Shown piece after piece: positions 9,581 to 32,000 of a DNA stretch of 32,000 bases (positions within the stretch are counted from its first letter, which is position 1; each line of letters starts with the position of its first letter). Location: NCBI GenBank assembly GCA_038823825.1, contig JAWBCC010000003.1:60001-92000 (forward strand), given 5' to 3'. The stretch comes from Candidatus Hadarchaeales archaeon. Its GTDB lineage: Archaea; Hadarchaeota; Hadarchaeia; Hadarchaeales; Hadarchaeaceae. The position numbers were made by a program, and so were the translations under genes. Under the pieces are notes generated by a model, which saw only the letters and a list, made by a program, of their open reading frames with translations, was not told where the DNA came from and ran no database searches.

Positions 9581-10290
9581 GTCCCGAACATGAAATCTTG
9601 ATACTCGACATATCTTTTGTAAAGGCGGGATCTCCTCCTTTTAACGTAAATTCCGGCGAGAACTCCGACGACTATTCCAATTAGATGGGCAAGGTTCGCG
9701 ACCGAACTTTGCGGAAGAGTAAGAGCCATGAGGGCCGAGAGAATTCCAAAGCCCGTGATGAACATCCAGAGGCGCATCGGAATGAAGAAAAAAAGGAGGA
9801 CCGGGAGTCTAGGCATGATAACCGCTAGGGTTCCGAGTAGTCCAAGAATCGCTCCGCTGGCCCCGAGGACGATGACGTCTGGAGGGCTAACTGAAAGCTG
9901 AGCGAGTGCGGCAATTACGCCTGAGAGGAAAAAGATAGCGAGAAAGTTTGCCTTTCCTATTTTCATCTCTAGCATCGGGGAGAAGGAAATGAAGACGATA
10001 ATGTTCACAAGCAGGTGGAGAATCCCCCCGTGTGCGAATATCGATGTGATGAGAGTCCACGGTCTCTCAGCCAGAGTTCTTCTTGATGGGCACAAATAGT
10101 AAAGAAAAGAATTCCTGTCTCCAGAAATAAAGTAGTTTTCGCCAAGACTGACTTCTGCAACGATCTGAAGGATGAAAACTCCAATTATTGCTGCGGTCAA
10201 GATATAAGTGGCAATGGGTCTTTCCAATCTGCGGAAGACGAAGCGCACAGTTGATGGCTCGTATTCGACGTATCCAAATTCTATGCTCAT
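9574..10290 (-). CDS. rhomboid-family intramembrane serine protease
   Basis: A multi-TM protein with the rhomboid signatures FAHGGILHLLVN (HxxxN) and the catalytic GASGAILGLLG (GxSG). A later His lies in ANLAHLIGIVVG. Confidence 0.85.
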   Translation of the reverse strand: MSIEFGYVEYEPSTVRFVFRRLERPIATYILTAAIIGVFILQIVAEVSLGENYFISGDRNSFLYYLCPSRRTLAERPWTLITSIFAHGGILHLLVNIIVFISFSPMLEMKIGKANFLAIFFLSGVIAALAQLSVSPPDVIVLGASGAILGLLGTLAVIMPRLPVLLFFFIPMRLWMFITGFGILSALMALTLPQSSVANLAHLIGIVVGVLAGIYVKRRRSRLYKRYVEYQDFMFGTW

Positions 10291-10513: not shown

Positions 10514-13500
10514 GTGGATGAAAGTGGTAGTAATGTGCTGAGCACCTTTTTTGGTACATTGCTTTTAATATCGCTTCTCGCCTTCTCTGTTTCGTTTGTG
10601 TTTCTGTTTTCTGCGAGAACGGTTTCCGCATCGCCTGACTCTCACGCTCCGATATACATAGTTGGGAATGAAAACTTCACGCCTGCAAACGGTGTTCGCT
10701 CGGGTTCTGGAACCGAAACAGATCCTTACATAATCGAGAACTGGGAAATCGATGCTTCCACGGGACACGGGATCCACATTAAAAACACCACTGCATATTT
10801 CGTAATCAGAAATGTGTTGGTTGAGAACGGGAGCGGTGCTTACTATGGGATTTATCTAGAAAACGTGGTTAACGGCAGGCTCAGTAATAACATCGTGGGG
10901 AACAACGAGTGCGGTATTTATCTATACTCCTCAGACAATAACACTCTCTCGGGGAACGTCGTTGAGAACAACGAGACCGGTATTTACCTTGACAATTCCA
11001 ACAGCAACTTTCTCTTCGGCAACATCTTGGCGAACAACGGCACCGGCATCTTGCTCATTTATTCAGAAAATAATACTCTATCGGGAAACAATTTGGAGAA
11101 CAACGAGTACTACGGTGTTGATCTATACTACTCCGACAACAACACAATCTCCGGGAACAACATAGAAAGGTCATGGGACACGGGAATATGCATTGATGAG
11201 TCATCCGAAAACAACTATTTGAGCAACAATCAGATTAGACAATCTGATTATGGTTTTTATTTTTACTACTCCGGGAACAACTTTTTAGAAAATAATCTGG
11301 TTGAAAACTCTTCATACTCGGCGATATGGATAGATCACTCCGAAAATATAAAAATGCGGAAAAATGTGATGAAATTAGGACCCAGCCTCGTTATACAGGG
11401 CGGGTACCTCTTCCATTTCCTTCACGATATCGACAACTCAAATCTCGCGAACGGAAAGCCAATCCTCTATTTGACAGGGAAGGAGAACAACCTCGTGATC
11501 AACCAGGACAACAAAGTGGGATGGCTCGGTCTGGTGAACTCCGAGAACATGCGGGTTGAAAACATTGTCGTTGAGTCCATTCTGCTAGCTTTTACGTCAA
11601 AAAGCAAAATCGAGAACGTAATGGTTGAAAATGGATACTATGCAATCGAACTTTTCAAATCTTCCAACAATAGAATTCTGAGATCTTACATTGCTAGGGG
11701 TTTATATGGCATCTATTTACAAAACTCTCCCAACAATTTGATCTCTAGCTGCGAACTGGAAAGATCTTACTATAGTGTATGTGTCACTTATTCCGATAAC
11801 ATCGAAATCTCAAACAACATCGTGAGAATTGCGAGCCTTGGCATATATCTCTATCAGTGCGACAATATGGTTATCGCGGGAAACACGATTCGAGACATCG
11901 AAAATTTTGCGGGAGTTGAGAGCTTTAAACTCACTAATAGCAGGATTTCAAATAACAGCTTTATCAACGTTTCTGCTCAGTATGTGATTGTCAGTTACGG
12001 CTATTCTGAAAATATTTCTATTACCGGAAATATTATCGGAGGAGGAGGCAATTATTATGGGATATACACCGAACATTGGAATGAAGCGTTTATCTGTGGG
12101 AATACTATCGAGAACAACGTGGTCGCGGGCATATATCTCCATAGCCCTGAAAATTGCACAATTGAGAACAATATCTTAAGAAACAACCCAACTGGTATTT
12201 CTCTCTCCTACAATGCGAAAAGCAACAAAATTTCTGGGAACTGGCTGGAAAACAACAATAACTCCTCTCTCAGTATAACGAGTTATTCGGATAACAACAG
12301 GATAGTAAATAACACGATTAAGAAAAGTTCAGAGATGCGCATTAATTGGTCTAATTTCATCACGGTGGAAAATAATACAGTAGAAGACAGTTCCGGCTTC
12401 GCGTATTTATACTCATCCGACAACAATCTCATCTCAAACAATAAAATAACGAATGTTATTAGCGGGATAACCATGAGCACTTCTTGCGAGTACAATAGAA
12501 TAGAAAACAACTTTATTACTAAAGTAGCTACTAGCGGGGTCTTGCTAATGAGCACTAATTGTCAGTGGAACAAGATCTCTGGAAATAAGATTGAAAATTC
12601 CAATTGGGGCATAGAGGTAAGTTATAAAAATAACGAAATCTTTTCGAACGTGGTGAAGTTTTCAAGTAAAGGAATTTATGTCTATGGACAGTCGGATAAT
12701 ACCACAATCTTCGGAAACATTTTGGAGAATAATGAGGAGGGCATCCGCGTATCTAACTCAAAGGCAGAAATCACGGGGAACGATTTAAAGGGAAACACTT
12801 ATGGAATTTACCTAGCGACAAAAACAACCACTGTCTTGCATAATACGATAGTGGATGGCAATTATGGAATTTATTCATACTACTCCGAAAACATTCTGAT
12901 CGAAAACAACGTAATAGAGAGAAATTTGCTCGCAGGCATCTATTTTGATAGTTCAAAGAGCAATTTGATCGAAAACACCAAGATAGAAGGAAACGTTCAG
13001 TACGGCATATATCTTTTCTACTCGGATAACAACAGAATTCTAAACAACGATATCTTGAGCAGTTATCAAGGAATGTATCTATATCAGTCTAAGGACGCTG
13101 TGATCTCCGGTAACAGAGTGGAAAATAATGAGCAGGGAATATATCTTATGTACTCGAGTAAGGACAACATTCTAAACAATACTATACGTAGCAATAAATT
13201 TGGCGTTCTAATCGTCTGGGCTTCGTTAAATAATATAGTTGAGAACAACGAGGTCGATAGCAACCGGACCGGTGTGTATCTGTTTGGATCAAAATCTAAC
13301 ATCCTCCGCAGCAACAAAATCCTGTGGAGCACGGACACCGGGATAGGCGTTTACAATAATGCGGAGCTTAACAGGCTGGAAAACAATACCTGCGAGAACA
13401 ACGCATTTGGGATTCGCTTGGACACGGCGAAAAAAACCATTTTGAGAGGCAACAAACTCGAGAATAACGTTTGGTATGGGTTGTTCGTCAGCGGCTACCA

Positions 13501-16378
13501 GATGGACTACTACGACCACGATATCGACAACTCGAACGAACTCAACGGAAAACCGATTCTCTATCTGGTGGGAGAAAACAACATAGTGATTAACCAAGAC
13601 AACGATCCGGGCTTTCTAGGTCTCGTAGGTCTGGAGAATGTGAGGGCGGAAAATCTACAACCGGAATCTATTCTTCTCGTATTTACCGAAAACGTTTTGC
13701 TTAGAAATCATGCCGCACGCAGTCTCATTATGTGTTTTTCTGAAAACTGTAGACTAGAAAATAGCATCTCCGAGAACGGCATGTTTGGCATTTTAATTTG
13801 GTGGTCTAGAAATCTAACACTCCGAGCGAACCAAGCAAGAAACTGTCTCTATAATTTTGGCGTCGAAGGATGGGAGCTTCCTCATTACCTACATGATATT
13901 GATAACTCGAACTCGGTAAACGGGAAACCGGTCATCTATCTGATAAACGAAAACAACATCACGATTGAGCAGGGCGATCAGCCGGGTTACTTGGGCCTCA
14001 TTAATCTGAGCAGCGCGAAGGTTAAAGATGTCAAATTTGAGAAAAACTGTCAGGGAATTCTGCTTTTCAGCGTAGAGAACATAGAAATCGAGAATGTCGA
14101 TCTCAAAGCCAACTGGTTAGGTCTGGAGGCCAGCTTTTTGAAAGGTGGCGAGGTTAGCAACAACAGGATCGAAAATAACCTTGAAGGTTGCGTAATCCGG
14201 GATTCGAATAGCAATCTTTTCCATTCGAACATAGTGAGGAATAACCAAGAAGATGGTTTTTTGGTGAAAACTTCGGAAAACATTGTTTTCAGCGGAAACT
14301 TCGTTGAGAACAGCAATTATGGTATTAATGCATCCGAAACGGACAACATTATCATCACCGGGAACACAATAGAGCACACCTCAGAGTTTGGAATATACCT
14401 CGATATGATTTTAGGTGGCAGCGTGACTTTCAACAATTTGCGGAACAATCAAACCGGAATTAGAGTTGACAGCGGCAGTCGATTGGTTATTTCCTACAAC
14501 GTTATTGAGAACAGCTCGGATCGAGATATCATATTTAATGGAGAAAATTCTGTTTTCGAGGCAAACGTCTACACAACAGCAGACGGCATTCCTCACATAC
14601 ATTCAGTTTCTGTTACGAACATCACGCAGACATCTGCAACGATAACTTGGGTTACTGATGAGGACTCAACAACCGTTGTAGAATACGGACCAACAACGGC
14701 ATACGGATACACCGCCACCGATGGTGTGACGAAAAACCATCAGGTGAACCTCTCCAACCTTTCACCTGGAACAATCTACCACTTCCGCGTCCTTTCAACC
14801 GACAGTGAAAACAACCTTGAGATATCAAGGGACTTCACCTTCATGACGGCTTCACCTCCACCTCCACCGCCCCCACCGCCTCCTCCACCTGCCCAGATCT
14901 CAACATCCATAACGATCGAGCCATTTGCCTTCTCCATTGTCTCAGGAGGTTCTAGAGAGATAACAGCCATTCTGAGGGATAACGGAGGGAACCCGCTTTC
15001 CGGAAAGACGATATCGTGGAGCACAACCGCTGGAACAATAACCCAGACGAGCGTGACAGACAACCTTGGGAGGGCAATCGCAACCTTCACGGCTCCTGTT
15101 GTCACGCGAGTGGAAAATGTGACTATCACGGCAACATTTGCTGGTGATGCAAGCTATTTGGGGAGTCAGGCAAACGCCCTATGTACGGTTTCTCCAACTC
15201 CTCTCATCCCAACAACCTTGAGAATTTCACCGCCAAGTTTCACAGTCAGAGTTGGTGGAAGGACAACACTGACCGCAATCCTCTTGGATAACGCTGGAAA
15301 TCCGCTCCAAGGGAAGCAGATAGTTTGGAGCACAAATTCCGGTTCGATTGAACCGATGAGCGGTCTCACGGACAACTACGGGAGAATGGAGGTGACGTTT
15401 TTCGCACCGTCGGTCAGCGGATCTGTTGAAATCGGAGCTATGTTCGCAGGAGATTCCACACATACTGGAAGCCAAGCTGCATGTGAGGGAACCGTTTCCC
15501 CTCTTCAGGCCAGGATAGACATAACTCCTGATGTCATCTACAGAGGTTCCCTGCCACGCTGGATCTTCTGCTACATAGAGATCCCGGAGGAGAATGTGGA
15601 AGAGATAGATGTTGGCAGCGTTAGGCTTCAGCAAATTCCTGTTGATCCTAGCGCTCCGACGTCAGTCGGAGATCATGACGGGAACGGAATCCCAGACATT
15701 CTTCTAGGATTCAGCTCCCAGGCTCTTGCGCTTCCAGATTCCCCGGGCATTCTGCAACTTTCCGTCATCGGATTCGTTAAAGGACTGGAGTTCAAAGGCA
15801 CAACCGCTGTCCTTTACACAACCATTTCAGAAAACTTGAAGCCGATGATTTTTATTTTAGAAAACCTCCAGCCCGGCTCCTGGCCGGTTTTCTTGGAAAA
15901 CATCTCTCTAAACCGGATTGACATCATCCTCGAGAACTATAGGGAAAGAGCCCAGCTCTTTGTTCTAGAACTTTTCAGTCCTCCGGAGGGAATTCCTTCG
16001 GCCCCAGGAATAGTCTACAGATATCTCTTGATAACCGTGGAGAACCTGGAGGAGGTAGAAAACGTTTCCCTGACTTTTGCCGTAAGCCGCTCTTGGATTT
16101 CCTCCTCAAACATCTCTGAAAATCTGATTTTCCTAAAGAGATTCGACGCATCTGAAAACATATGGGAAAACATACCGATCACGTTGGTCGGAGAAGATGA
16201 AAGCTACGTCTACTTCCGTGCAAACTTGCGAGGTTTCTCTCTTTTTGCTATCTCCGGTCTCCCCGCAGCTGCGCCTAAACCAGAGGCCAAGCCAAGGACT
16301 GAGATCCTGATAGCTGTGATCGTCGTCATTATCATAATCCTTCTTTTTATCCTAATCTCTCTTAGGAGAAGGCAGTGA
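10514..16378 (+). CDS. giant secreted/cell-surface protein with parallel beta-helix (PbH1/NosD-like) repeats, FN3-like domain, Pro12 linker, two Big_1-like Ig repeats, PGF-pre-PGF-like domain and C-terminal TM anchor
   Basis: A single uninterrupted ORF runs from TTG 10460, which lies inside the tRNA-Ala T-tract, so GTG 10514 or 10535 is the more likely start. It has an N-terminal signal (LLLISLLAFSVSFVFLFSARTVSA/SPD). Dozens of ~22-aa repeats follow the pattern SxNNxIxxNxIxxNxxGIYLxxS. The FN3-like domain is at 14600-14850, the 12 Pro codons at 14855-14890, tandem ~100-aa Ig-like repeats at ~14897-15500, a FSLFAISG-terminated domain at ~16017-16260, and a TM segment with RRRQ tail at the end. 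Confidence 0.85.
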   Translation: MDESGSNVLSTFFGTLLLISLLAFSVSFVFLFSARTVSASPDSHAPIYIVGNENFTPANGVRSGSGTETDPYIIENWEIDASTGHGIHIKNTTAYFVIRNVLVENGSGAYYGIYLENVVNGRLSNNIVGNNECGIYLYSSDNNTLSGNVVENNETGIYLDNSNSNFLFGNILANNGTGILLIYSENNTLSGNNLENNEYYGVDLYYSDNNTISGNNIERSWDTGICIDESSENNYLSNNQIRQSDYGFYFYYSGNNFLENNLVENSSYSAIWIDHSENIKMRKNVMKLGPSLVIQGGYLFHFLHDIDNSNLANGKPILYLTGKENNLVINQDNKVGWLGLVNSENMRVENIVVESILLAFTSKSKIENVMVENGYYAIELFKSSNNRILRSYIARGLYGIYLQNSPNNLISSCELERSYYSVCVTYSDNIEISNNIVRIASLGIYLYQCDNMVIAGNTIRDIENFAGVESFKLTNSRISNNSFINVSAQYVIVSYGYSENISITGNIIGGGGNYYGIYTEHWNEAFICGNTIENNVVAGIYLHSPENCTIENNILRNNPTGISLSYNAKSNKISGNWLENNNNSSLSITSYSDNNRIVNNTIKKSSEMRINWSNFITVENNTVEDSSGFAYLYSSDNNLISNNKITNVISGITMSTSCEYNRIENNFITKVATSGVLLMSTNCQWNKISGNKIENSNWGIEVSYKNNEIFSNVVKFSSKGIYVYGQSDNTTIFGNILENNEEGIRVSNSKAEITGNDLKGNTYGIYLATKTTTVLHNTIVDGNYGIYSYYSENILIENNVIERNLLAGIYFDSSKSNLIENTKIEGNVQYGIYLFYSDNNRILNNDILSSYQGMYLYQSKDAVISGNRVENNEQGIYLMYSSKDNILNNTIRSNKFGVLIVWASLNNIVENNEVDSNRTGVYLFGSKSNILRSNKILWSTDTGIGVYNNAELNRLENNTCENNAFGIRLDTAKKTILRGNKLENNVWYGLFVSGYQMDYYDHDIDNSNELNGKPILYLVGENNIVINQDNDPGFLGLVGLENVRAENLQPESILLVFTENVLLRNHAARSLIMCFSENCRLENSISENGMFGILIWWSRNLTLRANQARNCLYNFGVEGWELPHYLHDIDNSNSVNGKPVIYLINENNITIEQGDQPGYLGLINLSSAKVKDVKFEKNCQGILLFSVENIEIENVDLKANWLGLEASFLKGGEVSNNRIENNLEGCVIRDSNSNLFHSNIVRNNQEDGFLVKTSENIVFSGNFVENSNYGINASETDNIIITGNTIEHTSEFGIYLDMILGGSVTFNNLRNNQTGIRVDSGSRLVISYNVIENSSDRDIIFNGENSVFEANVYTTADGIPHIHSVSVTNITQTSATITWVTDEDSTTVVEYGPTTAYGYTATDGVTKNHQVNLSNLSPGTIYHFRVLSTDSENNLEISRDFTFMTASPPPPPPPPPPPPAQISTSITIEPFAFSIVSGGSREITAILRDNGGNPLSGKTISWSTTAGTITQTSVTDNLGRAIATFTAPVVTRVENVTITATFAGDASYLGSQANALCTVSPTPLIPTTLRISPPSFTVRVGGRTTLTAILLDNAGNPLQGKQIVWSTNSGSIEPMSGLTDNYGRMEVTFFAPSVSGSVEIGAMFAGDSTHTGSQAACEGTVSPLQARIDITPDVIYRGSLPRWIFCYIEIPEENVEEIDVGSVRLQQIPVDPSAPTSVGDHDGNGIPDILLGFSSQALALPDSPGILQLSVIGFVKGLEFKGTTAVLYTTISENLKPMIFILENLQPGSWPVFLENISLNRIDIILENYRERAQLFVLELFSPPEGIPSAPGIVYRYLLITVENLEEVENVSLTFAVSRSWISSSNISENLIFLKRFDASENIWENIPITLVGEDESYVYFRANLRGFSLFAISGLPAAAPKPEAKPRTEILIAVIVVIIIILLFILISLRRRQ

Positions 16379-25874: not shown

Positions 25875-26093
25875 ATGACAACAGATCTGGATCCAAGGAC
25901 GCTGAAAGTTTATGAGACGATGAAGAAGCTCGGGGCTACCTCGCCAAACTCTCTGAAGACCGCGGACGACATAATGCGCGCCTGTGGTCTTCCGAAGAGC
26001 GTGGTGAACAACGCTCTAATGACTCTTGTGAACAAGGGTTATGCGAAGAGGGTGGCGAGGGAGAAGGCTGCCGGTTACTATCTTTTGAAGTGA
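25875..26093 (+). CDS. small winged-helix DNA-binding protein (72 aa)
   Basis: ATG 25875 has a GAGGTGA SD at 25865-25871. The product (TLKVYETMKKLGATSPNSLKTADDIMRACGLPKSVVNNALMTLVNKGYAKRV) has a wHTH pattern. The upstream part of ORF 25581-26093 is antisense to the UPF0316 gene. Confidence 0.55.
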   Translation: MTTDLDPRTLKVYETMKKLGATSPNSLKTADDIMRACGLPKSVVNNALMTLVNKGYAKRVAREKAAGYYLLK

Positions 26094-26156: not shown

Positions 26157-27266
26157 ATGAAAAGAGTGGGTGTTGCGGAGCTTCCTCTTCATGGCGGGAA
26201 ATGTCCTCCTTGGCTTTTCGGCAGGATGAAGAGACTTGGGGGCGCTATTGCGGAGCTCATCGTCAGAGAGTACGGGAGGAAGGAGTTTCTCCGCAGGCTG
26301 GGAGATCCGTTTTTCCTCCAGTCTCTTGGTTGTGTTTTGGGTTATGATTGGCATAGCTCTGGTTTGACGACTGTGACGATGGGTGCTCTTAAAGAGGCAC
26401 TTGCTGAGAGGGATCTTGGGATAGTCGTCTGCGGCGGAAAGGGTCTGGTTTCAAGGAGGACGCCGGACGAGATAGAGAAGGTTGCGGAGAAGTTCTCTTT
26501 CTCGACCGCGGAGAAGGAGAGGCTGAAGTATGCGAGTAGGATGGTTGCGAAGGTGGACAATGCTTGTGTTCAGGATGGATATCAGCTTTACCATCATACT
26601 TTCGTTTTGAGTGAGGATGGGGACTGGGCGGTTGTTCAGCAGGGGATGAGGGAGAAGTTTGCTAGGCGGTATCATTGGATATCGGAGGGTTTGAAGAGCT
26701 TCGTGGAGGAGCCGCATTCGGGGATAGCTGGAGAGAGAAAGGAGGATGTTGTTTTGGATATGACGGCTGAGGAGAGCGAAGAGGCGAGGAAGACGAGCGT
26801 GGATTTGGTGAGGGAGAACCCGAGGAGACTTCTCTCTTATGTTAGGGGTGCGGAGCAGAAGCTTTTGGATGAGTATCTGGAGAAGAAGCCGGAGGTTAAG
26901 GTTCTTCTCATGCCTGCGGGGCACAGGATATCGGAGTTGACGGAAAAGACGATTGCGGCGCTTAAGAGGGCTTACGAGATTCAGCCTGAGAATTATGAAG
27001 AGCTAGTGGCAATAAAGGGAATTGGTCCGAAGGCGATAAGGGCTCTTGCTCTTGTCTCAGCGGTTATCTATGGGAAGCCGCCATCTTGGAAGGATCCTGT
27101 GAGGTATAGCTTCGCGCATGGAGGGAAGGACGGGATTCCGTATCCTGTTGATAGGAAAACATATCAGACGACGATCGAGATTCTCGAAGAGGCGATAGAG
27201 GGAATGGAAGCTGGGAAGGAGGAGAAAATCCGAGCTCTTCGGAGACTTCACGAGTTTGTTGGGTAG
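26157..27266 (+). CDS. DUF763-family protein with helix-hairpin-helix motif
   Basis: The N-terminus VAELPLHGGKCPPWLFGRMKRLG...FLQSLGCVLGYDWHSSGLTTV matches my recollection of the DUF763 family. An HhH-like LVAIKGIGPKAIRALALV lies near the C-terminus. Confidence 0.7.
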   Translation: MKRVGVAELPLHGGKCPPWLFGRMKRLGGAIAELIVREYGRKEFLRRLGDPFFLQSLGCVLGYDWHSSGLTTVTMGALKEALAERDLGIVVCGGKGLVSRRTPDEIEKVAEKFSFSTAEKERLKYASRMVAKVDNACVQDGYQLYHHTFVLSEDGDWAVVQQGMREKFARRYHWISEGLKSFVEEPHSGIAGERKEDVVLDMTAEESEEARKTSVDLVRENPRRLLSYVRGAEQKLLDEYLEKKPEVKVLLMPAGHRISELTEKTIAALKRAYEIQPENYEELVAIKGIGPKAIRALALVSAVIYGKPPSWKDPVRYSFAHGGKDGIPYPVDRKTYQTTIEILEEAIEGMEAGKEEKIRALRRLHEFVG

Positions 27267-27280
27267 TGCACAGCTGTGCA
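27267..27280. repeat. palindrome copy 1: TGCACAGCTGTGCA (perfect 14-bp dyad)
   Basis: It starts immediately after the DUF763 TAG stop. The extended block agTGCACAGCTGTGCAtaatttcg is shared with copy 5. Confidence 0.9.
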
Positions 27281-27317
27281 TAATTTCGCTTCATTCACAA
27301 ATTTGACTAGGGTTGAG

Positions 27318-27331
27318 TTCACAGCTGTGCA
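27318..27331. repeat. palindrome copy 2: TTCACAGCTGTGCA (1 mismatch)
   Basis: The extended block ggttgagTTCACAGCTGTGCA is shared with copy 4. It abuts the TATA-like cttataaa at 27336-27343. Confidence 0.9.
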
Positions 27332-27356
27332 TTCCCTTATAAACCGCTTTCAACTG

Positions 27357-27620
27357 ATGGATCGGTGGGAGTGCACAGCTGTGCACGGTCGAGTAATTCT
27401 TTTCACGTGGGAGCTTAAGGAGAGCTCAAAATCTCGGCGTTGGTTTTACGCAAATCTCAGGCGACTGCTGGATGAGCTTCCGCGAAACAGCTGGTGTAAA
27501 CTTGGGGGTTCGGTCTATCTCGTGGAAAAACGATATTCTGTGAGATTTCTAATGCTTCTCAAAAAGTTTGAAGGACCGGAACTAACGTGGTATTCGTTCG
27601 AGATAGTGCGTCAGGTTTGA
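27357..27620 (+). CDS. small orphan protein (about 80-114 aa depending on start), possible ferredoxin-like (Cas2/VapD-like) fold
   Basis: The ORF is open from 27276 to 27620, with candidate starts at GTG 27276, ATG 27357 and GTG 27381. The core VILFTWELKESSKSRRWFYANLRRLLDEL..KLGGSVYLVEKRYSVRFLMLLKKFEGPELTWYSFEI shows an alternating beta-alpha-beta-beta-alpha-beta hydrophobicity pattern. I recognise no family. Confidence 0.45.
   Translation: MDRWECTAVHGRVILFTWELKESSKSRRWFYANLRRLLDELPRNSWCKLGGSVYLVEKRYSVRFLMLLKKFEGPELTWYSFEIVRQV
27372..27385. repeat. palindrome copy 3: TGCACAGCTGTGCA (16-bp dyad with its flanks, gTGCACAGCTGTGCAc)
   Basis: It lies about 30-45 nt downstream of the TATA-like box, at the predicted transcription start / 5' end of the small ORF. 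Confidence 0.9.
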
Positions 27621-27621
27621 G

Positions 27622-27635
27622 TTCACAGCTGTGCA
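27622..27635. repeat. palindrome copy 4: TTCACAGCTGTGCA
   Basis: It starts 2 nt after the small ORF's TGA. The flank ggtttgag matches copy 2, and caacgccccc follows. Confidence 0.9.
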
Positions 27636-27674
27636 CAACGCCCCCGCTGATCACGGGAAATCCCACCACAGCAG

Positions 27675-27688
27675 TGCACAGCTGTGCA
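27675..27688. repeat. palindrome copy 5: TGCACAGCTGTGCA
   Basis: The extended block agTGCACAGCTGTGCAtagtttcg matches copy 1. It lies about 15 nt upstream of the TATA-like taaattctaaaaat (27703-27716) of tRNA-Tyr. Confidence 0.9.
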
Positions 27689-27739
27689 TAGTTTCGTGTG
27701 CGTAAATTCTAAAAATCGGTGAATAGATGTAGAAATGGG

Positions 27740-27830
27740 CCCGCGGTAGCTCAGCTTGGTAGAGCGGCCGGCTGTAGACCCGTCGGCCGAAACCGGCATG
27801 TCGGGAGTTCAAATCTCCCCCGCGGGACCA
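27740..27830 (+). tRNA. tRNA-Tyr (anticodon GTA) with 14-nt intron at the canonical 37/38 position, CCA encoded
   Basis: Acceptor CCCGCGG/CCGCGGG carries the archaeal/eukaryal Tyr identity pair C1:G72. The D arm is GCTC..GAGC. The anticodon stem GCCGG (27767-71) pairs with CCGGC (27793-97), enclosing 21 nt, which is the 7-nt loop CTGTAGA plus a 14-nt intron (27778-27791, with 1-nt sliding ambiguity). The T arm is GGGAG-TTCAAAT-CTCCC. Confidence 0.85.
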
Positions 27831-27852
27831 TGAGTCCATTTCAATCGCCTGC

Positions 27853-28656
27853 TTAAGGATGACTGGAGAACACTGGAATCGGGGCCGCTTTCGTACACTT
27901 TTCCCGATATCCGCACGCACCACATTTTTCAGCTTTTCTGGTCGGTTTGGCGTTTCTTCTTTCCTCCCAAAACGGTATCGCCCATTCAAGCTTTTCGATT
28001 GCGCTTTCCAGCGAGAAGGGGTACATCCAGACCACTAGTCCAGGAATGTCGAGATCAACCGGTTCTTTTTTATACAGTTCAGGTATGCTCAGCATGCATA
28101 TTGTCTGGTTGAGACTCTCGATCTTTTCTCTGTTCAGATCGTGTGGTGCTACAGAGATGGCGTATCTCAGCTCAGAAGTTTCGAAGCCAAGGTCATGGAG
28201 AAGATATCCGTAAACCAGAGCCTGAACGTGATAACTCGGAAAAATCTTCGGCTTTCTGGAAAACTTGTATTCGATGAGCAGCGTGGGTTTTCTGCGCCTG
28301 AAGAGTATATAGTCCGGTCTACCTGCGATTACGCATTCCCGGTACTTTCCGAGTAGAAGCATAGAAGCCCCAACCGTTGGCTTTTGAAATATGTCTCTCC
28401 AGAGATCCTCTCTTTTTACAGGAATCATGCCGGAAAGAGTCAGTTCATGCTTTTCATCACCCTTTTCCATTTCTTGGGTCTGAATCTTCCCGTAGGTGTA
28501 TTTGAGTTCCACTTTTTTCTCGCAATAAAACTGTTCTGCTATCTCCGAGGCATTCACAAAATGTAGTCCAAAGCGGAGCCTTTTTTTACTCTCTTTTGCT
28601 TCCTCCAGCAATGACATAAATCTTCTAAACGGTTTCCACCTTTTCATGGAACCCAC
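27853..28656 (-). CDS. Cas4-like PD-(D/E)xK nuclease with 4-Cys Fe-S motif (stand-alone, no CRISPR array or other recognisable cas genes in window)
   Basis: The N-terminal Cys is in ASEIAEQFYCEKK. The nuclease core is GRPDYILF...LLIEYKFS (D...ExK), followed by QALVYGYLL (QxxxY) and the C-terminal CGACGYREKC (Cx2Cx5C). The start is GTG 28656 or ATG 28647. Confidence 0.8.
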   Translation of the reverse strand: MGSMKRWKPFRRFMSLLEEAKESKKRLRFGLHFVNASEIAEQFYCEKKVELKYTYGKIQTQEMEKGDEKHELTLSGMIPVKREDLWRDIFQKPTVGASMLLLGKYRECVIAGRPDYILFRRRKPTLLIEYKFSRKPKIFPSYHVQALVYGYLLHDLGFETSELRYAISVAPHDLNREKIESLNQTICMLSIPELYKKEPVDLDIPGLVVWMYPFSLESAIEKLEWAIPFWEERRNAKPTRKAEKCGACGYREKCTKAAPIPVFSSHP

Positions 28657-28738
28657 AAAACTAAATTAGGGTTTTGTCATAAAATACGCTTGGGCAGTTA
28701 ACAAGATCCCACAAACGAGAGTAGTTTTTTAAATTTCG

Positions 28739-29176
28739 TTGTTTATAAAGGAGCTTCATTCAATCAGCTTGTGGGTTGTTTTGTCAGGTGTTCGGATATC
28801 ATCGCCGCATGACATATTTGCTCTCGTAAAAGGAGATTTCTCGAATGATAGCGAAAAGGTGGAGCTTGTAATGCTAGATTCGATGTGCAACGTTCTCGCA
28901 AAGGAAATTGTTTCCGAGGGAAGCGAGAACTCGGCTCCCCTCCATCCCCGTCAAGTGCTTGCCGTGGCTCTTCGATATCCGACGGTTTTCATTGTTCTTG
29001 TTCATAACCATCCGAAAGGTTGTGTGGAACCCAGCGAGGAGGATATAGAGGTAACGAGGAAAATTGCAAAGGCTGGAAAAATGGTTGGCGTTTACCTACT
29101 CGATCACCTGATAATTGGGAATGGGAAATTCTTTAGTTTCCTTCAGCAAGGTCTAATTTCTCCTTCAATTAGATAA
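28739..29176 (+). CDS. RadC-like JAB/MPN domain protein
   Basis: The JAMM signature VLVHNHPKGCVEPSEEDIEVT is present, followed by VYLLDHLIIGNGKFFSF. It is the C-terminal RadC domain only. The start is uncertain (TTG 28739 from the track, with other in-frame TTG/GTG/ATG codons downstream). Confidence 0.8.
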   Translation: MFIKELHSISLWVVLSGVRISSPHDIFALVKGDFSNDSEKVELVMLDSMCNVLAKEIVSEGSENSAPLHPRQVLAVALRYPTVFIVLVHNHPKGCVEPSEEDIEVTRKIAKAGKMVGVYLLDHLIIGNGKFFSFLQQGLISPSIR

Positions 29177-29198
29177 GCAGAAATTAAAGCTGCTTATC
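29172..29198. promoter_or_regulatory. perfect 9-bp inverted repeat (GATAAGCAG-n9-CTGCTTATC) between radC-like gene and hsdM
   Basis: The stem overlaps the radC-like TAA stop, and a third agataag follows at 29199-29205, 10 nt before the hsdM ATG. It could be a hairpin (terminator or processing site) or a dimeric operator. Confidence 0.35.
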
Positions 29199-29214
29199 AG
29201 ATAAGTTTATATGC

Positions 29215-30996
29215 ATGAAAGAAGAAAATTATAAGATTAATTTGGCAAAAAGAATCGACAGATGGCTAGAAAATAGGCGAATTTTGCTCATGAAAACTTT
29301 TGGGACTAGAGAATTTACCCGTAGAGAAGCTACAGATGTCCTAAAAGAAAAATTTGGTGATGATGAGAAAGCAGTTGCTGCAGTTCTCTCGGAGTTAAAG
29401 CATGCTGGTTATCTCGAGATGAGACCGGATCCTACTGACGCCAGGAAAACGATATACTGCCTAAAAGAAGTCAAGATTCTCAAGCCTGAAACAGAGGAGC
29501 TGACAAGGGATGAGCTAGAATCGCTCCTAAAAAGAGCCGCGGATCTCATACGAACTCGTGTTGATTACAAGTTCATTCTCATTCTGCTCTTTCTCAAGAG
29601 AATAAGTGATAAGTGGGAGATGGAGTTTAAACAGGTTTACGAGCAGCTTCTCCGGAATGGACTTTCGGAGGAAGAAGCCGAGGAGGAAGCTAAGAGCAGC
29701 ATCTACCACGAGTTTGATTTGCCTGAGAAGTTCCTTTGGGAAAACCTTCGCAAAGATGTGGCTAGACTCCCGGAGAGACTCGCTGAATGTCTCAAAACCC
29801 TCGCCGAACGCAACCCGGAGTTGAAGGATGTGGTGGATAGGGGAGATTTTCTCCAGTTTGCGAGAAGTTCGGAAAATGCGGAGATTTTGAGGCAGCTTGT
29901 TGAACTCTTCAGTTCTCGCAAGCTCCACCACGTTTCTCCCGATGTGCTCGGAGACGCGTATGAATGGGTTTTGAGGTACTTTGCTCCGGAAAAGGCGAAA
30001 GAGGGAGAAATCTACACACCAAGGGAGGTCATAAAACTGCTCGTTGAGATTTTGAATCCGAAATCTGGAGAATCTGTTTATGATCCAGCGTGCGGATCGG
30101 GTGGAATGCTCATTTTGTCGTTCAAGAATGTGGAGGAAAAGGAGGGGAGGGAGGCAACCCGAAAGCTCTCCTTGTACGGACAGGAGGCAAACCGGGAGAT
30201 TTTCGCTCTCTGCAAAATGAATATGTACATCCACGATATTAGGGATGTCAACATTGAGTGGGGTGATACGCTTCTCTATCCAAAGTTCATTGAGGGGAAC
30301 AGGCCAAAGACTTTCGACGTTGTGATGGCGAATCCACCTTGGAATCAGGATGGTTATCACGAGGAGGTTCTGAAGAAGGGAGAGTTCTGGGGAGAGAGGT
30401 TTGTCTACGGTTTCCCGCCCAAACAGTCTGCGGACTGGGCATGGATTCAGCATATGCTGGCTTCCGCCGACGGGAAAAACGGAAGGGTTGGGGTTGTTAT
30501 AGACAACGGTTGTCTGTTCAGGGGAGGGAAGGAGCGGGCAATAAGGGAGAGGGTGCTGAGAGATGACCTGCTGGAGTGCGTGATCCTTCTGCCGGAGAAG
30601 CTCTTTTATAACACCGGAGCCCCGGGAGCCATTCTGATTTTCCGTAAACATAAGCCAGCCGAGAGGAAGGGGAAGATCCTGTTCATTAACGCGAGCCAGG
30701 AGTATGAGAAGCATCCAGAGGTGAGGAAGCTGAACAGGCTTGGGGAGGCAAACATAAGGAAGATCGCTGAGGCCTACAGGAACTTCAAGGATGTTGAGGG
30801 TTTCGCCAGAGTGGTTTCGCTGGGGGAGGTGAGGGAGAACGATTACAATCTAAACGTCACGCTGTACGTCTTTCCGGAGGAGAAGGTCGAGGAGATAGAC
30901 GTGGCGAAGGAGTGGGAGGAACTCCGCAAGATTGAGAAGGAAATTACAGAGGTTGAGGAGAAGATTCAGGGATATTTGAGGGAGGTTGGAGGTTAA
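29215..30996 (+). CDS. hsdM: type I restriction-modification N6-adenine DNA methyltransferase subunit with about 95-aa N-terminal winged-helix extension
   Basis: The HsdM_N-like region is AADLIRTRVDYKFILILLFLKRISDKWE. The AdoMet motif is VYDPACGSGGML and the catalytic motif IV is VMANPPWN. Residues 1-95 (..REATDVLKEKFGDDEKAVAAVLSELKHAGYLEMRPDPTDARKTIYCL) look like a MarR-type wHTH. Confidence 0.9.
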   Translation: MKEENYKINLAKRIDRWLENRRILLMKTFGTREFTRREATDVLKEKFGDDEKAVAAVLSELKHAGYLEMRPDPTDARKTIYCLKEVKILKPETEELTRDELESLLKRAADLIRTRVDYKFILILLFLKRISDKWEMEFKQVYEQLLRNGLSEEEAEEEAKSSIYHEFDLPEKFLWENLRKDVARLPERLAECLKTLAERNPELKDVVDRGDFLQFARSSENAEILRQLVELFSSRKLHHVSPDVLGDAYEWVLRYFAPEKAKEGEIYTPREVIKLLVEILNPKSGESVYDPACGSGGMLILSFKNVEEKEGREATRKLSLYGQEANREIFALCKMNMYIHDIRDVNIEWGDTLLYPKFIEGNRPKTFDVVMANPPWNQDGYHEEVLKKGEFWGERFVYGFPPKQSADWAWIQHMLASADGKNGRVGVVIDNGCLFRGGKERAIRERVLRDDLLECVILLPEKLFYNTGAPGAILIFRKHKPAERKGKILFINASQEYEKHPEVRKLNRLGEANIRKIAEAYRNFKDVEGFARVVSLGEVRENDYNLNVTLYVFPEEKVEEIDVAKEWEELRKIEKEITEVEEKIQGYLREVGG

Positions 30997-31000
30997 ACAA

Positions 31001-31651
31001 ATGAAAAGATCAAATGATGAGATTCGCGAGTTAATTCTAAGAGAATTATATGAAGTTCACAAAAAAGCTAGGAGTCTAAAAGCCACGGGAAAAAGCATAA
31101 GCGAGTTGAAACGCCAACTTAAGAAGCAATATGGACTAAGTGAAAAAGAAATTGTGCCCAATCTTGATTTTTTAATCCAATGCGGTTGGGTAAAGGTAGA
31201 GAAAGAAACATCCGAGTTTAAAACTCCAAGAGGGTTTATAAAGAAACAGGAGAAAGGTATCTTCAAAATTTCAGATATGGGTATCAACTATTTTGAAGGA
31301 CAATCCAAATTCCAAAGGATAGAGAGATCGCTTGCTGGTATAAACATAACTAATATAGGTGGGGTCACAGTCTTAGGGGACGGAAATGTAGTTGTAAATG
31401 TAAACTATGTTGATTTATACAAAGAACTGTCTATGCTTTCAGAGATCATAAGAAAAAGTGATCAACTCAAAGATGTTGACAAATTAAACTACATCGCGGA
31501 AATTGAAACAATAAAATCCCAGTTGATGAAACCGGAACCTGACAAGAACATAATAAAGCAAGCTTGGGAAAAACTAAAGCCACTTGCAACTATTGCTGGC
31601 ATAGCTTCGTTTTTCGAGCGAGTTGTTAAATTAATGGGGGCATTGTTTTGA
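31001..31651 (+). CDS. hypothetical protein encoded between hsdM and hsdS (N-terminal wHTH-like region, C-terminal helical region)
   Basis: ATG 31001 has a GGAGGT SD 7 nt upstream, and the ORF opens at TTG 30986. The stop TGA overlaps the hsdS TTG start. This stretch is visibly more A+T-rich than hsdM. I recognise no family. Confidence 0.55.
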   Translation: MKRSNDEIRELILRELYEVHKKARSLKATGKSISELKRQLKKQYGLSEKEIVPNLDFLIQCGWVKVEKETSEFKTPRGFIKKQEKGIFKISDMGINYFEGQSKFQRIERSLAGINITNIGGVTVLGDGNVVVNVNYVDLYKELSMLSEIIRKSDQLKDVDKLNYIAEIETIKSQLMKPEPDKNIIKQAWEKLKPLATIAGIASFFERVVKLMGALF

Positions 31652-32000
31652 AAACCGGTTACAAACAAACGCCAATCGGTAGTATCCCGAAGGAGTGGGA
31701 GGTTGTCAGGCTTGGGGATATTTCTAAGGTATCTTCGGGGAATACAGCACCGCAAGATAAAAAATATTTTGAAAATGGGAAATATCCTTTCATAAGAGTT
31801 CAGCACCTTAGTACATTGCTAGAAAATAAATATCCTATTATTTGCGATTTTGTAAATGACTTGGCTGTTGAGGAACTCAAATTGAAAAAATTCAAGAAAG
31901 GTTCTATAATATTTCCGAAAAGCGGGGAGTCTATAAGGCTTGAAAAAAGGGCGATACTAAGAGAGGATTCCTATGTGGTAAACCACTTAGTTGTTGTCGA
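31648..32000 (+). CDS. hsdS: type I R-M specificity subunit, N-terminal part (continues beyond window)
   Basis: This ORF is not in the supplied track because it has no stop in the window. The frame-1 ORF from TTG 31648 reads LKTGYKQTPIGSIPKEWEVVRLGDISKVSSGNTAPQDKKYFENGKYPFIRVQHL..., the canonical HsdS target-recognition-domain N-terminus. Confidence 0.8.
   Translation, partial: MKTGYKQTPIGSIPKEWEVVRLGDISKVSSGNTAPQDKKYFENGKYPFIRVQHLSTLLENKYPIICDFVNDLAVEELKLKKFKKGSIIFPKSGESIRLEKRAILREDSYVVNHLVVV

Follow-up and report, generated by a model that had tools for sequence, protein, structure and literature searches.

Proteins that regulate their own genes by binding operators are a known kind of system. 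Archaeal repressors of this kind, which bind at the TATA box or shortly downstream of it, and type II antitoxins have palindromes over their own promoter or start, with several sites per promoter, and form compact modules that occur in varying genome contexts. The DNA-binding domains of papillomavirus E2 and of EBNA1 are dimers that read palindromes with a 4-bp centre (i.e. ACCG-N4-CGGT) at sites clustered in the control region, and Cas2 forms dimers, which in complexes with Cas1 rest on duplex DNA. The subject of the present analysis is a cassette of about 430 bp in a 32,000-nucleotide stretch of a Candidatus Hadarchaeales contig (JAWBCC010000003.1; the whole stretch is termed the window), in which an open reading frame (ORF) encoding 79 amino acids is bracketed by copies of a 14-bp palindrome. 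Comparison of sequences among related loci indicates that the palindromes travel and co-vary with this gene. The product is predicted to have a Cas2-like fold, and it is probable that the palindromes, as double-stranded DNA, are the sites at which this basic protein binds and represses transcription from its own promoter, and that the cassette carrying both relocates. The likeness to autoregulated archaeal repressors and antitoxin operators has its limits, as the predicted fold is not helix-turn-helix (HTH), ribbon-helix-helix (RHH) or AbrB, the gene stands alone without a toxin or target gene, some sites come after the coding region and the start codon lies within the operator. What is new is the fold used, the incorporation of the start codon in the operator, the placement of a gene between its own sites and the fact that the whole unit moves.

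Cassette layout and insertion

The cassette and its immediate host flanks comprise the following features (window coordinates, with the strand where assigned).

26157..27266, + strand: DUF763 gene, left host flank outside the cassette (stop codon 27264-27266)
27267..27696, + strand: whole cassette (about 430 bp, right end approximate), absent from orthologous DUF763/tRNA-Tyr junctions
27265..27288, + strand: left copy of a 24-nt direct repeat, AGTGCACAGCTGTGCATA(A/G)TTTCG, bounding the insert (sub-type A)
27267..27280: palindrome copy 1 (TGCACAGCTGTGCA), right after the DUF763 stop, at the left end of the insert
27318..27331: palindrome copy 2 (TTCACAGCTGTGCA), ending 5 nt upstream of the TATA-like box
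27337-27343, + strand: TATA-like box ttataaa of the ORF promoter, as read from the sequence
27364..27371, + strand: putative Shine-Dalgarno (SD)-like element ggtgggag, ending 9 nt before GTG 27381
27372..27385: palindrome copy 3, with the GTG start codon of the ORF at its positions 10-12
27381..27620, + strand: ORF with GTG start, 79 amino acids plus stop (stop codon 27618-27620; alternative in-frame ATG at 27357)
27622..27635: palindrome copy 4 (TTCACAGCTGTGCA), beginning 2 nt past the ORF stop
27673..27696, + strand: right copy of the 24-nt direct repeat, bounding the insert (sub-type A)
27675..27688: palindrome copy 5, at the right end of the insert, 15-20 nt upstream of the tRNA-Tyr promoter region
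27703-27716: promoter-like TAAATTCTAAAAAT, upstream of tRNA-Tyr
27740..27830, + strand: tRNA-Tyr (GTA), 91 nt, right host flank

The 32 kb were scanned with the query TGCACAGCTGTGCA, allowing up to two mismatches. Exactly five copies of the motif T[G/T]CACAGCTGTGCA were returned, starting at 27267, 27318, 27372, 27622 and 27675, of which the second and fourth have the left arm TTCAC. No match was present in the other 31.5 kb of the window at this threshold. Shuffled sequences gave a mean of 0.03 matches and 0/100 shuffles reached five. Start-to-start spacings of the copies were 51, 54, 250 and 53 bp, as determined with a repeat finder. A preliminary description of this DNA, made from the sequence alone, had reported five copies at these positions and noticed none elsewhere, and the scan agreed on both counts; the placement of the copies relative to the DUF763 stop, the TATA-like box, the ORF stop and tRNA-Tyr was also correct. 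Both of the flank sub-types distinguished there were recovered. Sub-type A corresponds to the direct repeat that bounds the insert (AGTGCACAGCTGTGCATAGTTTCG); its two copies agree at 23/24 positions in the window, and in strains L024 and L001 (L-numbers denote loci fetched for comparison) they agree at all 24. Sub-type B consists of ggtt(t)gagTTCACAGCTGTGCA at 27311-27331 and 27614-27635, with ggtt(t)gag shared on the left of copies 2 and 4. The flank that follows the post-ORF palindrome is alike in two distant loci (i.e. CAACGCCCCCGC at 27636-27650 of the window and CAACGTCGCCCCC at 5388-5402 of L002); in the window this flank can base-pair with the SD-like GGTGGG that precedes copy 3, and does so in a predicted RNA fold, a complementarity that was not seen in L005 or L008.

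The insertion was examined at orthologous junctions. A metagenome scan with the DUF763 protein of the window returned 80 loci, and only in L024, from the same species, did the ORF lie downstream of DUF763. In L025, L026, L028, L030 and L034, whose DUF763 proteins are 69-74% identical, tRNA-Tyr begins 35-41 nt after the DUF763 stop, and in L038 and L039 (64-68% identical) a tRNA begins 36-51 nt after it. The corresponding gap in the window is 473 nt. Since tRNA-Tyr of the relatives lies only 35-41 nt after DUF763, positions 27267-27696 are an insertion, bearing out a suggestion of the preliminary description; no recognisable target-site duplication was found at the insert. On this comparative evidence the cassette entered the gap between DUF763 and the tRNA-Tyr promoter in the lineage of the window; in other Hadarchaeota it resides elsewhere.

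A further proposal, that the locus is an iteron- or partition-like relic of an element integrated at tRNA-Tyr, was not upheld. The cassette lies upstream of the tRNA promoter, away from the 3' end of the tRNA, it contains neither an integrase nor a replication gene, and no relatives were detected among viruses in IMG/VR (searched with the protein and with a paired-palindrome pattern), INPHARED phages or PLSDB plasmids. A partition centromere with its binder was likewise rejected, as no partition NTPase of the ParA/ParM type is conserved beside the cassette and plasmid homologues are lacking in these collections.

An all-against-all comparison of neighbouring genes placed ten type-1 cassettes in ten unrelated contexts. 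The second sub-lineage (type 2; L013, L104 and L105) is fixed between NTP-transferase and phosphoglucomutase genes in three lineages. No second gene was conserved beside the cassette across 11 contexts. The preliminary view of the ORF and palindromes as a self-contained unit thus gained support, from at least 11 different gene contexts and from a palindrome that co-varies with the protein lineage. Near the type-2 cassette of L105, an anaerobic ribonucleotide reductase gene (NrdD, 11674-13602) gave faint matches to intein and LAGLIDADG domains.

The gene family and its palindromes

Translation was assigned to start at GTG 27381, inside copy 3, because the N-termini of homologues begin with M-H (GTG-CAC encoding M-H). 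A frame of 114 amino acids is open from 27276 because the upstream spacings (51 and 54) are multiples of 3. This extended form was rejected, as its upstream part is not conserved and the corresponding spacings in L002 are 61 and 65. DUF763, the three upstream palindromes and the ORF (27264-27620) all share one reading frame in the window, in which each upstream palindrome reads (C/F)TAVH and a change of centre from AGCT to GGCC is synonymous; the shared frame is not kept in L002.

Thirteen relatives of the ORF product were found in a collection of 5.8 billion proteins, one of them identical to the window protein, and those with names all derive from metagenome-assembled genomes (MAGs) of Hadarchaeales or Hadarchaeota. 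An exhaustive HMMER profile search of 1.84 billion cluster representatives gave 21 matches, every named member being from the Hadarchaeota. A second, broader profile search added six clusters, none annotated, and the additional named members were again Hadarchaeota. The family alignment has 26 invariant columns, including W-E-L, RWFY, GGSVYL and FEGPEL. Pairwise ratios of non-synonymous to synonymous substitution (dN/dS) over the core were 0.03-0.23, with dS saturated. Conservation and coding signal in relatives, whose lack had been named beforehand as a result that would reduce the locus to a generic repeat cluster, were both present, and these comparisons indicate that the 79-aa ORF is a genuine gene under purifying selection. 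Scans of the ORF and 16 family members against Pfam and NCBIfam (both at E up to 10) and against PADLOC gave no match, and a literature search with the motif strings found no paper. The family is thus unannotated, with no model in these three resources, in agreement with the initial impression of an ORF without a recognised family.

Two loci carry altered copies of the gene. In L001, a Logan assembly of a near-identical strain, a 72-bp in-frame deletion between two TCGG repeats (L001 5077-5090, corresponding to window 27366-27437) takes out copy 3 together with the GTG start, and the 79-aa product thereby loses 19 residues at its N-terminus, among them strand 1 with its W-E-L; the deletion amounts to 24 codons of the frame starting at ATG 27357. 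To judge from this sequence, the gene appears dispensable or decaying in the L001 population. The second case is a type-2 family copy (L013 934-1295) in the same MAG as L009; an in-frame TGA marks this copy as a pseudogene. Its palindromes are in decay (i.e. TTCACACATGTGCA and GTGCACACGTTGCG) and a downstream copy is lacking.

A palindrome of the same design was present beside the ORF in every locus fetched, although the neighbouring genes differ. For motif counts, 15 non-redundant loci were searched with lineage-specific motifs: 48 copies fell within -250/+300 nt of the ORF as compared to 2 weak ones in 127 kb of flanks. The general palindrome pattern had no match in 437 kb of unrelated archaeal DUF763 loci. 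The variants were distributed as follows.

Window and L014: T(G/T)CAC-AGCT-GTGCA (five copies in the window)
L002, L005, L008, L009, L011 and L012: T(G/T)CAC-GGCC-GTGCA, 2-4 copies
L013, L015 and L105: TTCAC-ACGT-GTGCA, upstream only
L104: 13-nt units TTCACAG(C/G)TGTGC, five head-to-tail, upstream of the TATA box
L017: GTGGAC-ACGT-GTCTAC, 8 copies (2 upstream, 6 downstream)
L019: T(T/A)TCAC-ACGT-GTGA(A/T)A, 3 copies
L020 and L021: (G/A)TC(A/T)C-N4-GTGA(C/T) with centres ACGT, ATAT and AGGT (e.g. TGTCTCACGTGTGACA at L020 907); three upstream and one downstream in L020, one downstream in L021
L022: TCTAGAC-ACGT-GTCTAGA, 4 perfect 18-mers, starting at the stop codon

These variants, at least six in number, track sub-lineages of the protein, and the motif changes stepwise with divergence of the ORF product. 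Even within one MAG, two paralogues have different variants (GGCC in L009; ACGT/ACAT in L013). The four-base centre is itself palindromic in nearly all variants, which fits a two-fold symmetric recognition of duplex DNA. Noncoding copies of the palindrome were identical at 14/14 positions between loci whose silent sites are saturated, indicating that the sites are under selection. In L104 the five units (about 9965-10035) lie directly upstream of the TATA box of the P0014 gene and overlap one another, unlike the 40-70 bp spacing elsewhere.

The geometry of the start region was also compared. In 7/7 core Hadarchaeales loci the start-proximal palindrome is positioned exactly at -9 of the start codon, and all seven of these type-1 loci have a further copy 250-274 bp downstream of the start-codon copy, just past the conserved coding core. 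Relatives have GGCGGG(G) or GGAGGG in place of the ggtgggag of the window, a purine-rich SD-like element that directly adjoins the start-proximal copy. Copy 3 of the window is 29-35 nt downstream of the TATA box, and the distance from a TATA-like box down to the start-proximal palindrome is 29-42 nt in L002, L005, L008, L009, L011 and L012; in L014 a comparable box is present without this palindrome. Other copies end 5-18 nt upstream of the TATA box, and perfectly conserved copies are present upstream of it in 9/14 loci. The preliminary description had placed copy 3 over the predicted transcription start; this copy is better assigned to the start codon (GTG 27381). It had further proposed helical phasing of the sites. 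Five turns do fit the 51-54 bp spacings of the window; 24 neighbour spacings across the family ranged over 33-99 bp with no periodicity at 10.5 bp (Rayleigh p about 0.44), and helical phasing was therefore rejected as a conserved feature. Asymmetry was frequent, as 14/27 type-1 copies combine a TTCAC left arm with an unchanged GTGCA right arm, nearly always in the same orientation to the gene. Two hallmarks of an autoregulated binder were observed, i.e. a cognate motif over its own promoter and start that is conserved in orthologues, and co-variation of motif and protein.

Predicted fold, proposed mechanism and alternatives

AlphaFold2 models built with the family alignment are confident and have the order beta1-alpha1-beta2-beta3-alpha2-beta4; the predicted local distance difference test score (pLDDT) of the window protein is 84, and that of P0033, a distant member, is 92. 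In Foldseek searches of the PDB, the top 27 matches of the window model were all Cas2 chains (TM 0.51-0.62, E from 9e-4), followed by Lrp/AsnC RAM domains and VapD. For P0033, Cas2 and VapD led weakly (E from 0.06), with Cas2 supplying most of the top matches. The modelled ORF product thus has a Cas2-like fold, as had been guessed earlier in proposing a ferredoxin-like fold of Cas2/VapD type; this does not make it an established member of the Cas2 family. Searches with Pfam/NCBIfam, PDB sequences and hhalign revealed no link to Cas2 at the level of sequence or profile, and the family profile retrieved nothing relevant from PDB sequences. Comparison with a small Cas2 alignment in hhalign gave a non-significant probability of 0.2 over 12 columns of strand 1 only, with W-E-L over Y-D-I. 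The W-(E/D) at the end of strand 1 is invariant in all members; its acidic residue may correspond to the metal-binding/catalytic Asp of Cas2, with which it is aligned in the non-significant 12-column match. Most members have a pI of about 10-11, and a conserved basic segment, RRKRWFYxNLKR, occupies the start of helix 1. The BFVD library of viral folds returned nothing significant. For E2/EBNA1 there was a faint BFVD match (probability 0.15) and none among the top 50 PDB matches, so that no meaningful structural match exists to these eukaryotic viral proteins and the analogy is one of mechanism only.

Besides the lack of sequence or profile similarity, the cassette differs from Cas2 and VapD loci in its surroundings, as there is no cas1, CRISPR array or VapX-like partner beside the ORF and the Cas1 family was absent from the called neighbours in all loci. 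For the known Cas2 and VapD proteins there is neither a linked cognate palindrome nor any known recognition of a specific duplex sequence. A precedent for a stand-alone Cas2-like protein outside CRISPR loci is BPSL1038 (PMC10491678). A VapD/VapX type II toxin-antitoxin pair was rejected, since no second conserved ORF is present and the spacers between palindromes are unrelated among loci. A CRISPR array, with repeats of 23-47 bp and constant spacers, does not match repeats of 14-18 bp at irregular spacings of 13-108 bp with a gene inside the array. For a type III (ToxIN-like) toxin-antitoxin system, only a 14-24 nt core is repeated and the promoter lies between copies 2 and 3.

In the proposed mechanism, a small basic protein with a Cas2-like ferredoxin fold would act as a symmetric dimer and recognise the 14-16 bp palindrome T(G/T)CAC-NNNN-GTGCA in double-stranded DNA. 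One site would lie over its own start codon, just downstream of the TATA box, with further sites just upstream of that box and one or two after the coding region. Occupation of the sites would shut off the protein's own promoter (i.e. negative autoregulation), and the flanking sites may serve for cooperative binding, for looping or to block read-through. We infer that the product binds the palindrome as a dimer and that repression is the result; the mode of cassette movement is likewise inferred. A self-repressing duplex binder is the simplest account because the gene of a small basic protein always carries, over its promoter and start codon, a lineage-specific site of two-fold symmetry. Several observations weigh against this account. 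To our knowledge, sequence-specific binding of DNA has not been described for Cas2, ferredoxin-like folds are widespread and the fold match is modest (TM 0.5-0.62; best E 9e-4 and 6e-2). The downstream arrays exceed what a simple autorepressor needs (six copies in L017; four in L022, with none upstream), a copy at the start codon is lacking in L014, L021 and L022, and L013, L015, L104 and L105 are without a downstream copy. The TTCAC...GTGCA asymmetry of about half of the type-1 copies, in one orientation, is not predicted by pure two-fold recognition. The site search covered about 180 kb of sampled flanks and a wider regulon is possible; the palindrome binder could also be another, unlinked factor.

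The palindromes might act in RNA, an unlikely reading in which panhandles or hairpins mask the start codon along with the ribosome-binding site, or make the mRNA more stable, and an RRM-like or Cas2/VapD-like protein serves as RNA binder or RNase on these structures (translational autoregulation). As identical palindromes, the start-codon and post-ORF copies can pair in a transcript or form hairpins, and in the minimum-free-energy structure predicted for 27362-27700 copies 3 and 4 pair with each other and enclose the entire ORF (z-score -3.7), with the SD-like GGUGGG paired to a CCCCCGC flank. The presence of a start-codon copy and a copy 250-274 nt downstream in all 7 core loci is consistent with such pairing, and RNase activity has been reported for Cas2 and VapD relatives (PMC3351183). 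Against this, the conserved copies upstream of the TATA box in 9/14 loci, including the five units of L104, fall outside the cassette's own transcript, and the G-to-T change in the left arm of 14/27 type-1 copies is never compensated on the right. Hairpins of single copies are weak (-0.2 to -5.6 kcal/mol, DNA parameters), flank complementarity beyond the palindrome is not conserved in L002, L005 or L008, and partners for pairing are missing in L105, L104 and L015 (no downstream copy) and in L022 (no upstream copy). Another possibility of small probability is that the palindromes are operators of an unlinked Hadarchaeota regulator, the ORF being a non-binding protein and merely the most tightly controlled target. 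The Cas2 fold is not an established sequence-specific DNA-binding fold and, with about 180 kb around the cassettes searched, other sites and the real binder may lie elsewhere. The different palindrome variants at the L009 and L013 paralogues of one MAG argue otherwise, because an unlinked factor would need two specificities. The stepwise shift of the motif with divergence of the ORF protein, the absence of a second gene conserved across the 11 contexts and the lack of any site away from the cassette in the sampled flanks also speak against a distant regulator.

The relocation of the cassette raises the question of an autonomous miniature mobile element, in which the Cas2-like protein nicks or cuts the flanking palindromes, or recruits host recombination, and so moves the 430-bp unit. 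The ten type-1 loci share no neighbours, relatives have a precise empty site, the insert is bounded by a 24-nt direct repeat containing the palindrome, the W-(E/D) of strand 1 is invariant, and some copies have decayed (L013 is a pseudogene, and L001 has the in-frame deletion). This explanation is nonetheless doubtful: a recognisable target-site duplication is lacking, extended terminal repeats are absent in L002, L005 and L008, and the promoter lies outside the two palindromes in L009 and L011. Genomes contain 1-2 copies and no dispersed family, the syntenic position of type-2 cassettes is the same in three lineages, scans with Pfam and NCBIfam gave no catalytic motif of a transposase or recombinase family, and the alignment of the acidic residue to the Cas2 Asp is without statistical support. 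It is equally doubtful that the cassette represents a minimal self-mobilising element, whose protein of about 80 amino acids would recognise, and perhaps cut, the palindromes bracketing its gene; on that reading it would represent a free-living relative of the Cas2 lineage, in which a Cas2-like protein is already combined with short palindromic repeats, would bear on the origin of CRISPR adaptation modules and repeats, and would be the smallest protein-coding mobile unit described in archaea. REP/RAYT elements (REPtrons) and IS200/IS605 share with the cassette a small gene flanked on both sides by short palindrome copies. They were rejected as models, as HUH/Tyr motifs and a Y1 transposase domain were absent (Pfam/NCBIfam and alignments) and the palindromes are not dispersed (0 in the other 31.5 kb of the window; 2 weak in 127 kb of flanks); hairpin recognition as in REP/RAYT is disfavoured because the arm changes are uncompensated. 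Least credible is a site for chromosome organisation (i.e. centromere-like, a replication-fork barrier or a boundary) with the protein as its dedicated binder, after the manner of sopC/SopB, Ter/Tus or RTP. Palindrome arrays on both sides of the gene, with up to 8 copies at 33-99 bp spacing, and the consistent orientation of the imperfect half-site would suit it, and in Tus/TerB, RTP/Ter and SopB/sopC the binder gene also lies beside its own spaced palindromic sites and is autoregulated through them. Around the cassettes no distant sites, partner ATPase or link to a replication landmark were seen and the fold is unrelated to those binders; a conserved partner NTPase is lacking, the gene itself is the only place where sites occur, some strains appear able to dispense with the gene, and the family is known from a single phylum and has no plasmid members (PLSDB).

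If the self-repressing duplex binder is correct, the family would constitute a new group of sequence-specific DNA binders on a Cas2/VapD ferredoxin fold, as opposed to HTH, RHH or AbrB folds. The putative binding site can be read from the genome, with natural specificity variants already available (centres AGCT, GGCC and ACGT; arms CAC or GAC), so that gene and palindrome make a directly testable protein-plus-site pair from an uncultured archaeal phylum, the Hadarchaeota, for which we know of no characterised regulators. The locus also provides a clean case of a moved 430-bp unit of gene plus operators with an identified empty site, and a non-CRISPR branch of the Cas2-like fold associated with short palindromic repeats.

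Host flanks and minor observations

Genes further from the cassette were annotated as follows.

25875-26093: 72-aa TrmB/IclR-like winged-helix protein, between a DUF2179/DUF5698 membrane protein and DUF763
27853-28656, minus strand: Cas4-like PD-(D/E)XK nuclease, directly 3' of tRNA-Tyr
28739-29176: RadC-like JAB protein, downstream of tRNA-Tyr
29215-30996: 593-aa ORF, resembling a type I restriction-modification methyltransferase (HsdM), as judged by eye alone
30986-31651: 221-aa ORF without a family

The winged-helix gene keeps the same position in L001. As a palindrome binder its product (25875-26093) is unlikely because the gene is missing beside other cassettes. On the 3' side of tRNA-Tyr, the relatives have tRNA-Asp and tRNA-Lys in place of the Cas4-like, RadC-like and HsdM-like genes, and positions 27853-32000 look like a separate, inserted defence island. 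A second, att-like copy of the tRNA-Tyr 3' end was not found in the 32-kb window, and the Cas4-like gene is not conserved alongside the cassette. An Rfam scan of 26500-28500 found nothing besides the tRNA. With a length of 91 nt, tRNA-Tyr contains an intron. An intron-containing tRNA beginning cccgcggtaactcag downstream of DUF763 was missed or mis-called by ARAGORN in several relatives (L026, L029, L033, L034, L038, L039 and L045), the output being Leu, '???' or nothing although the sequence is clearly present. In L033 the tRNA after DUF763 is truncated at 16 nt and is followed by unrelated DNA.

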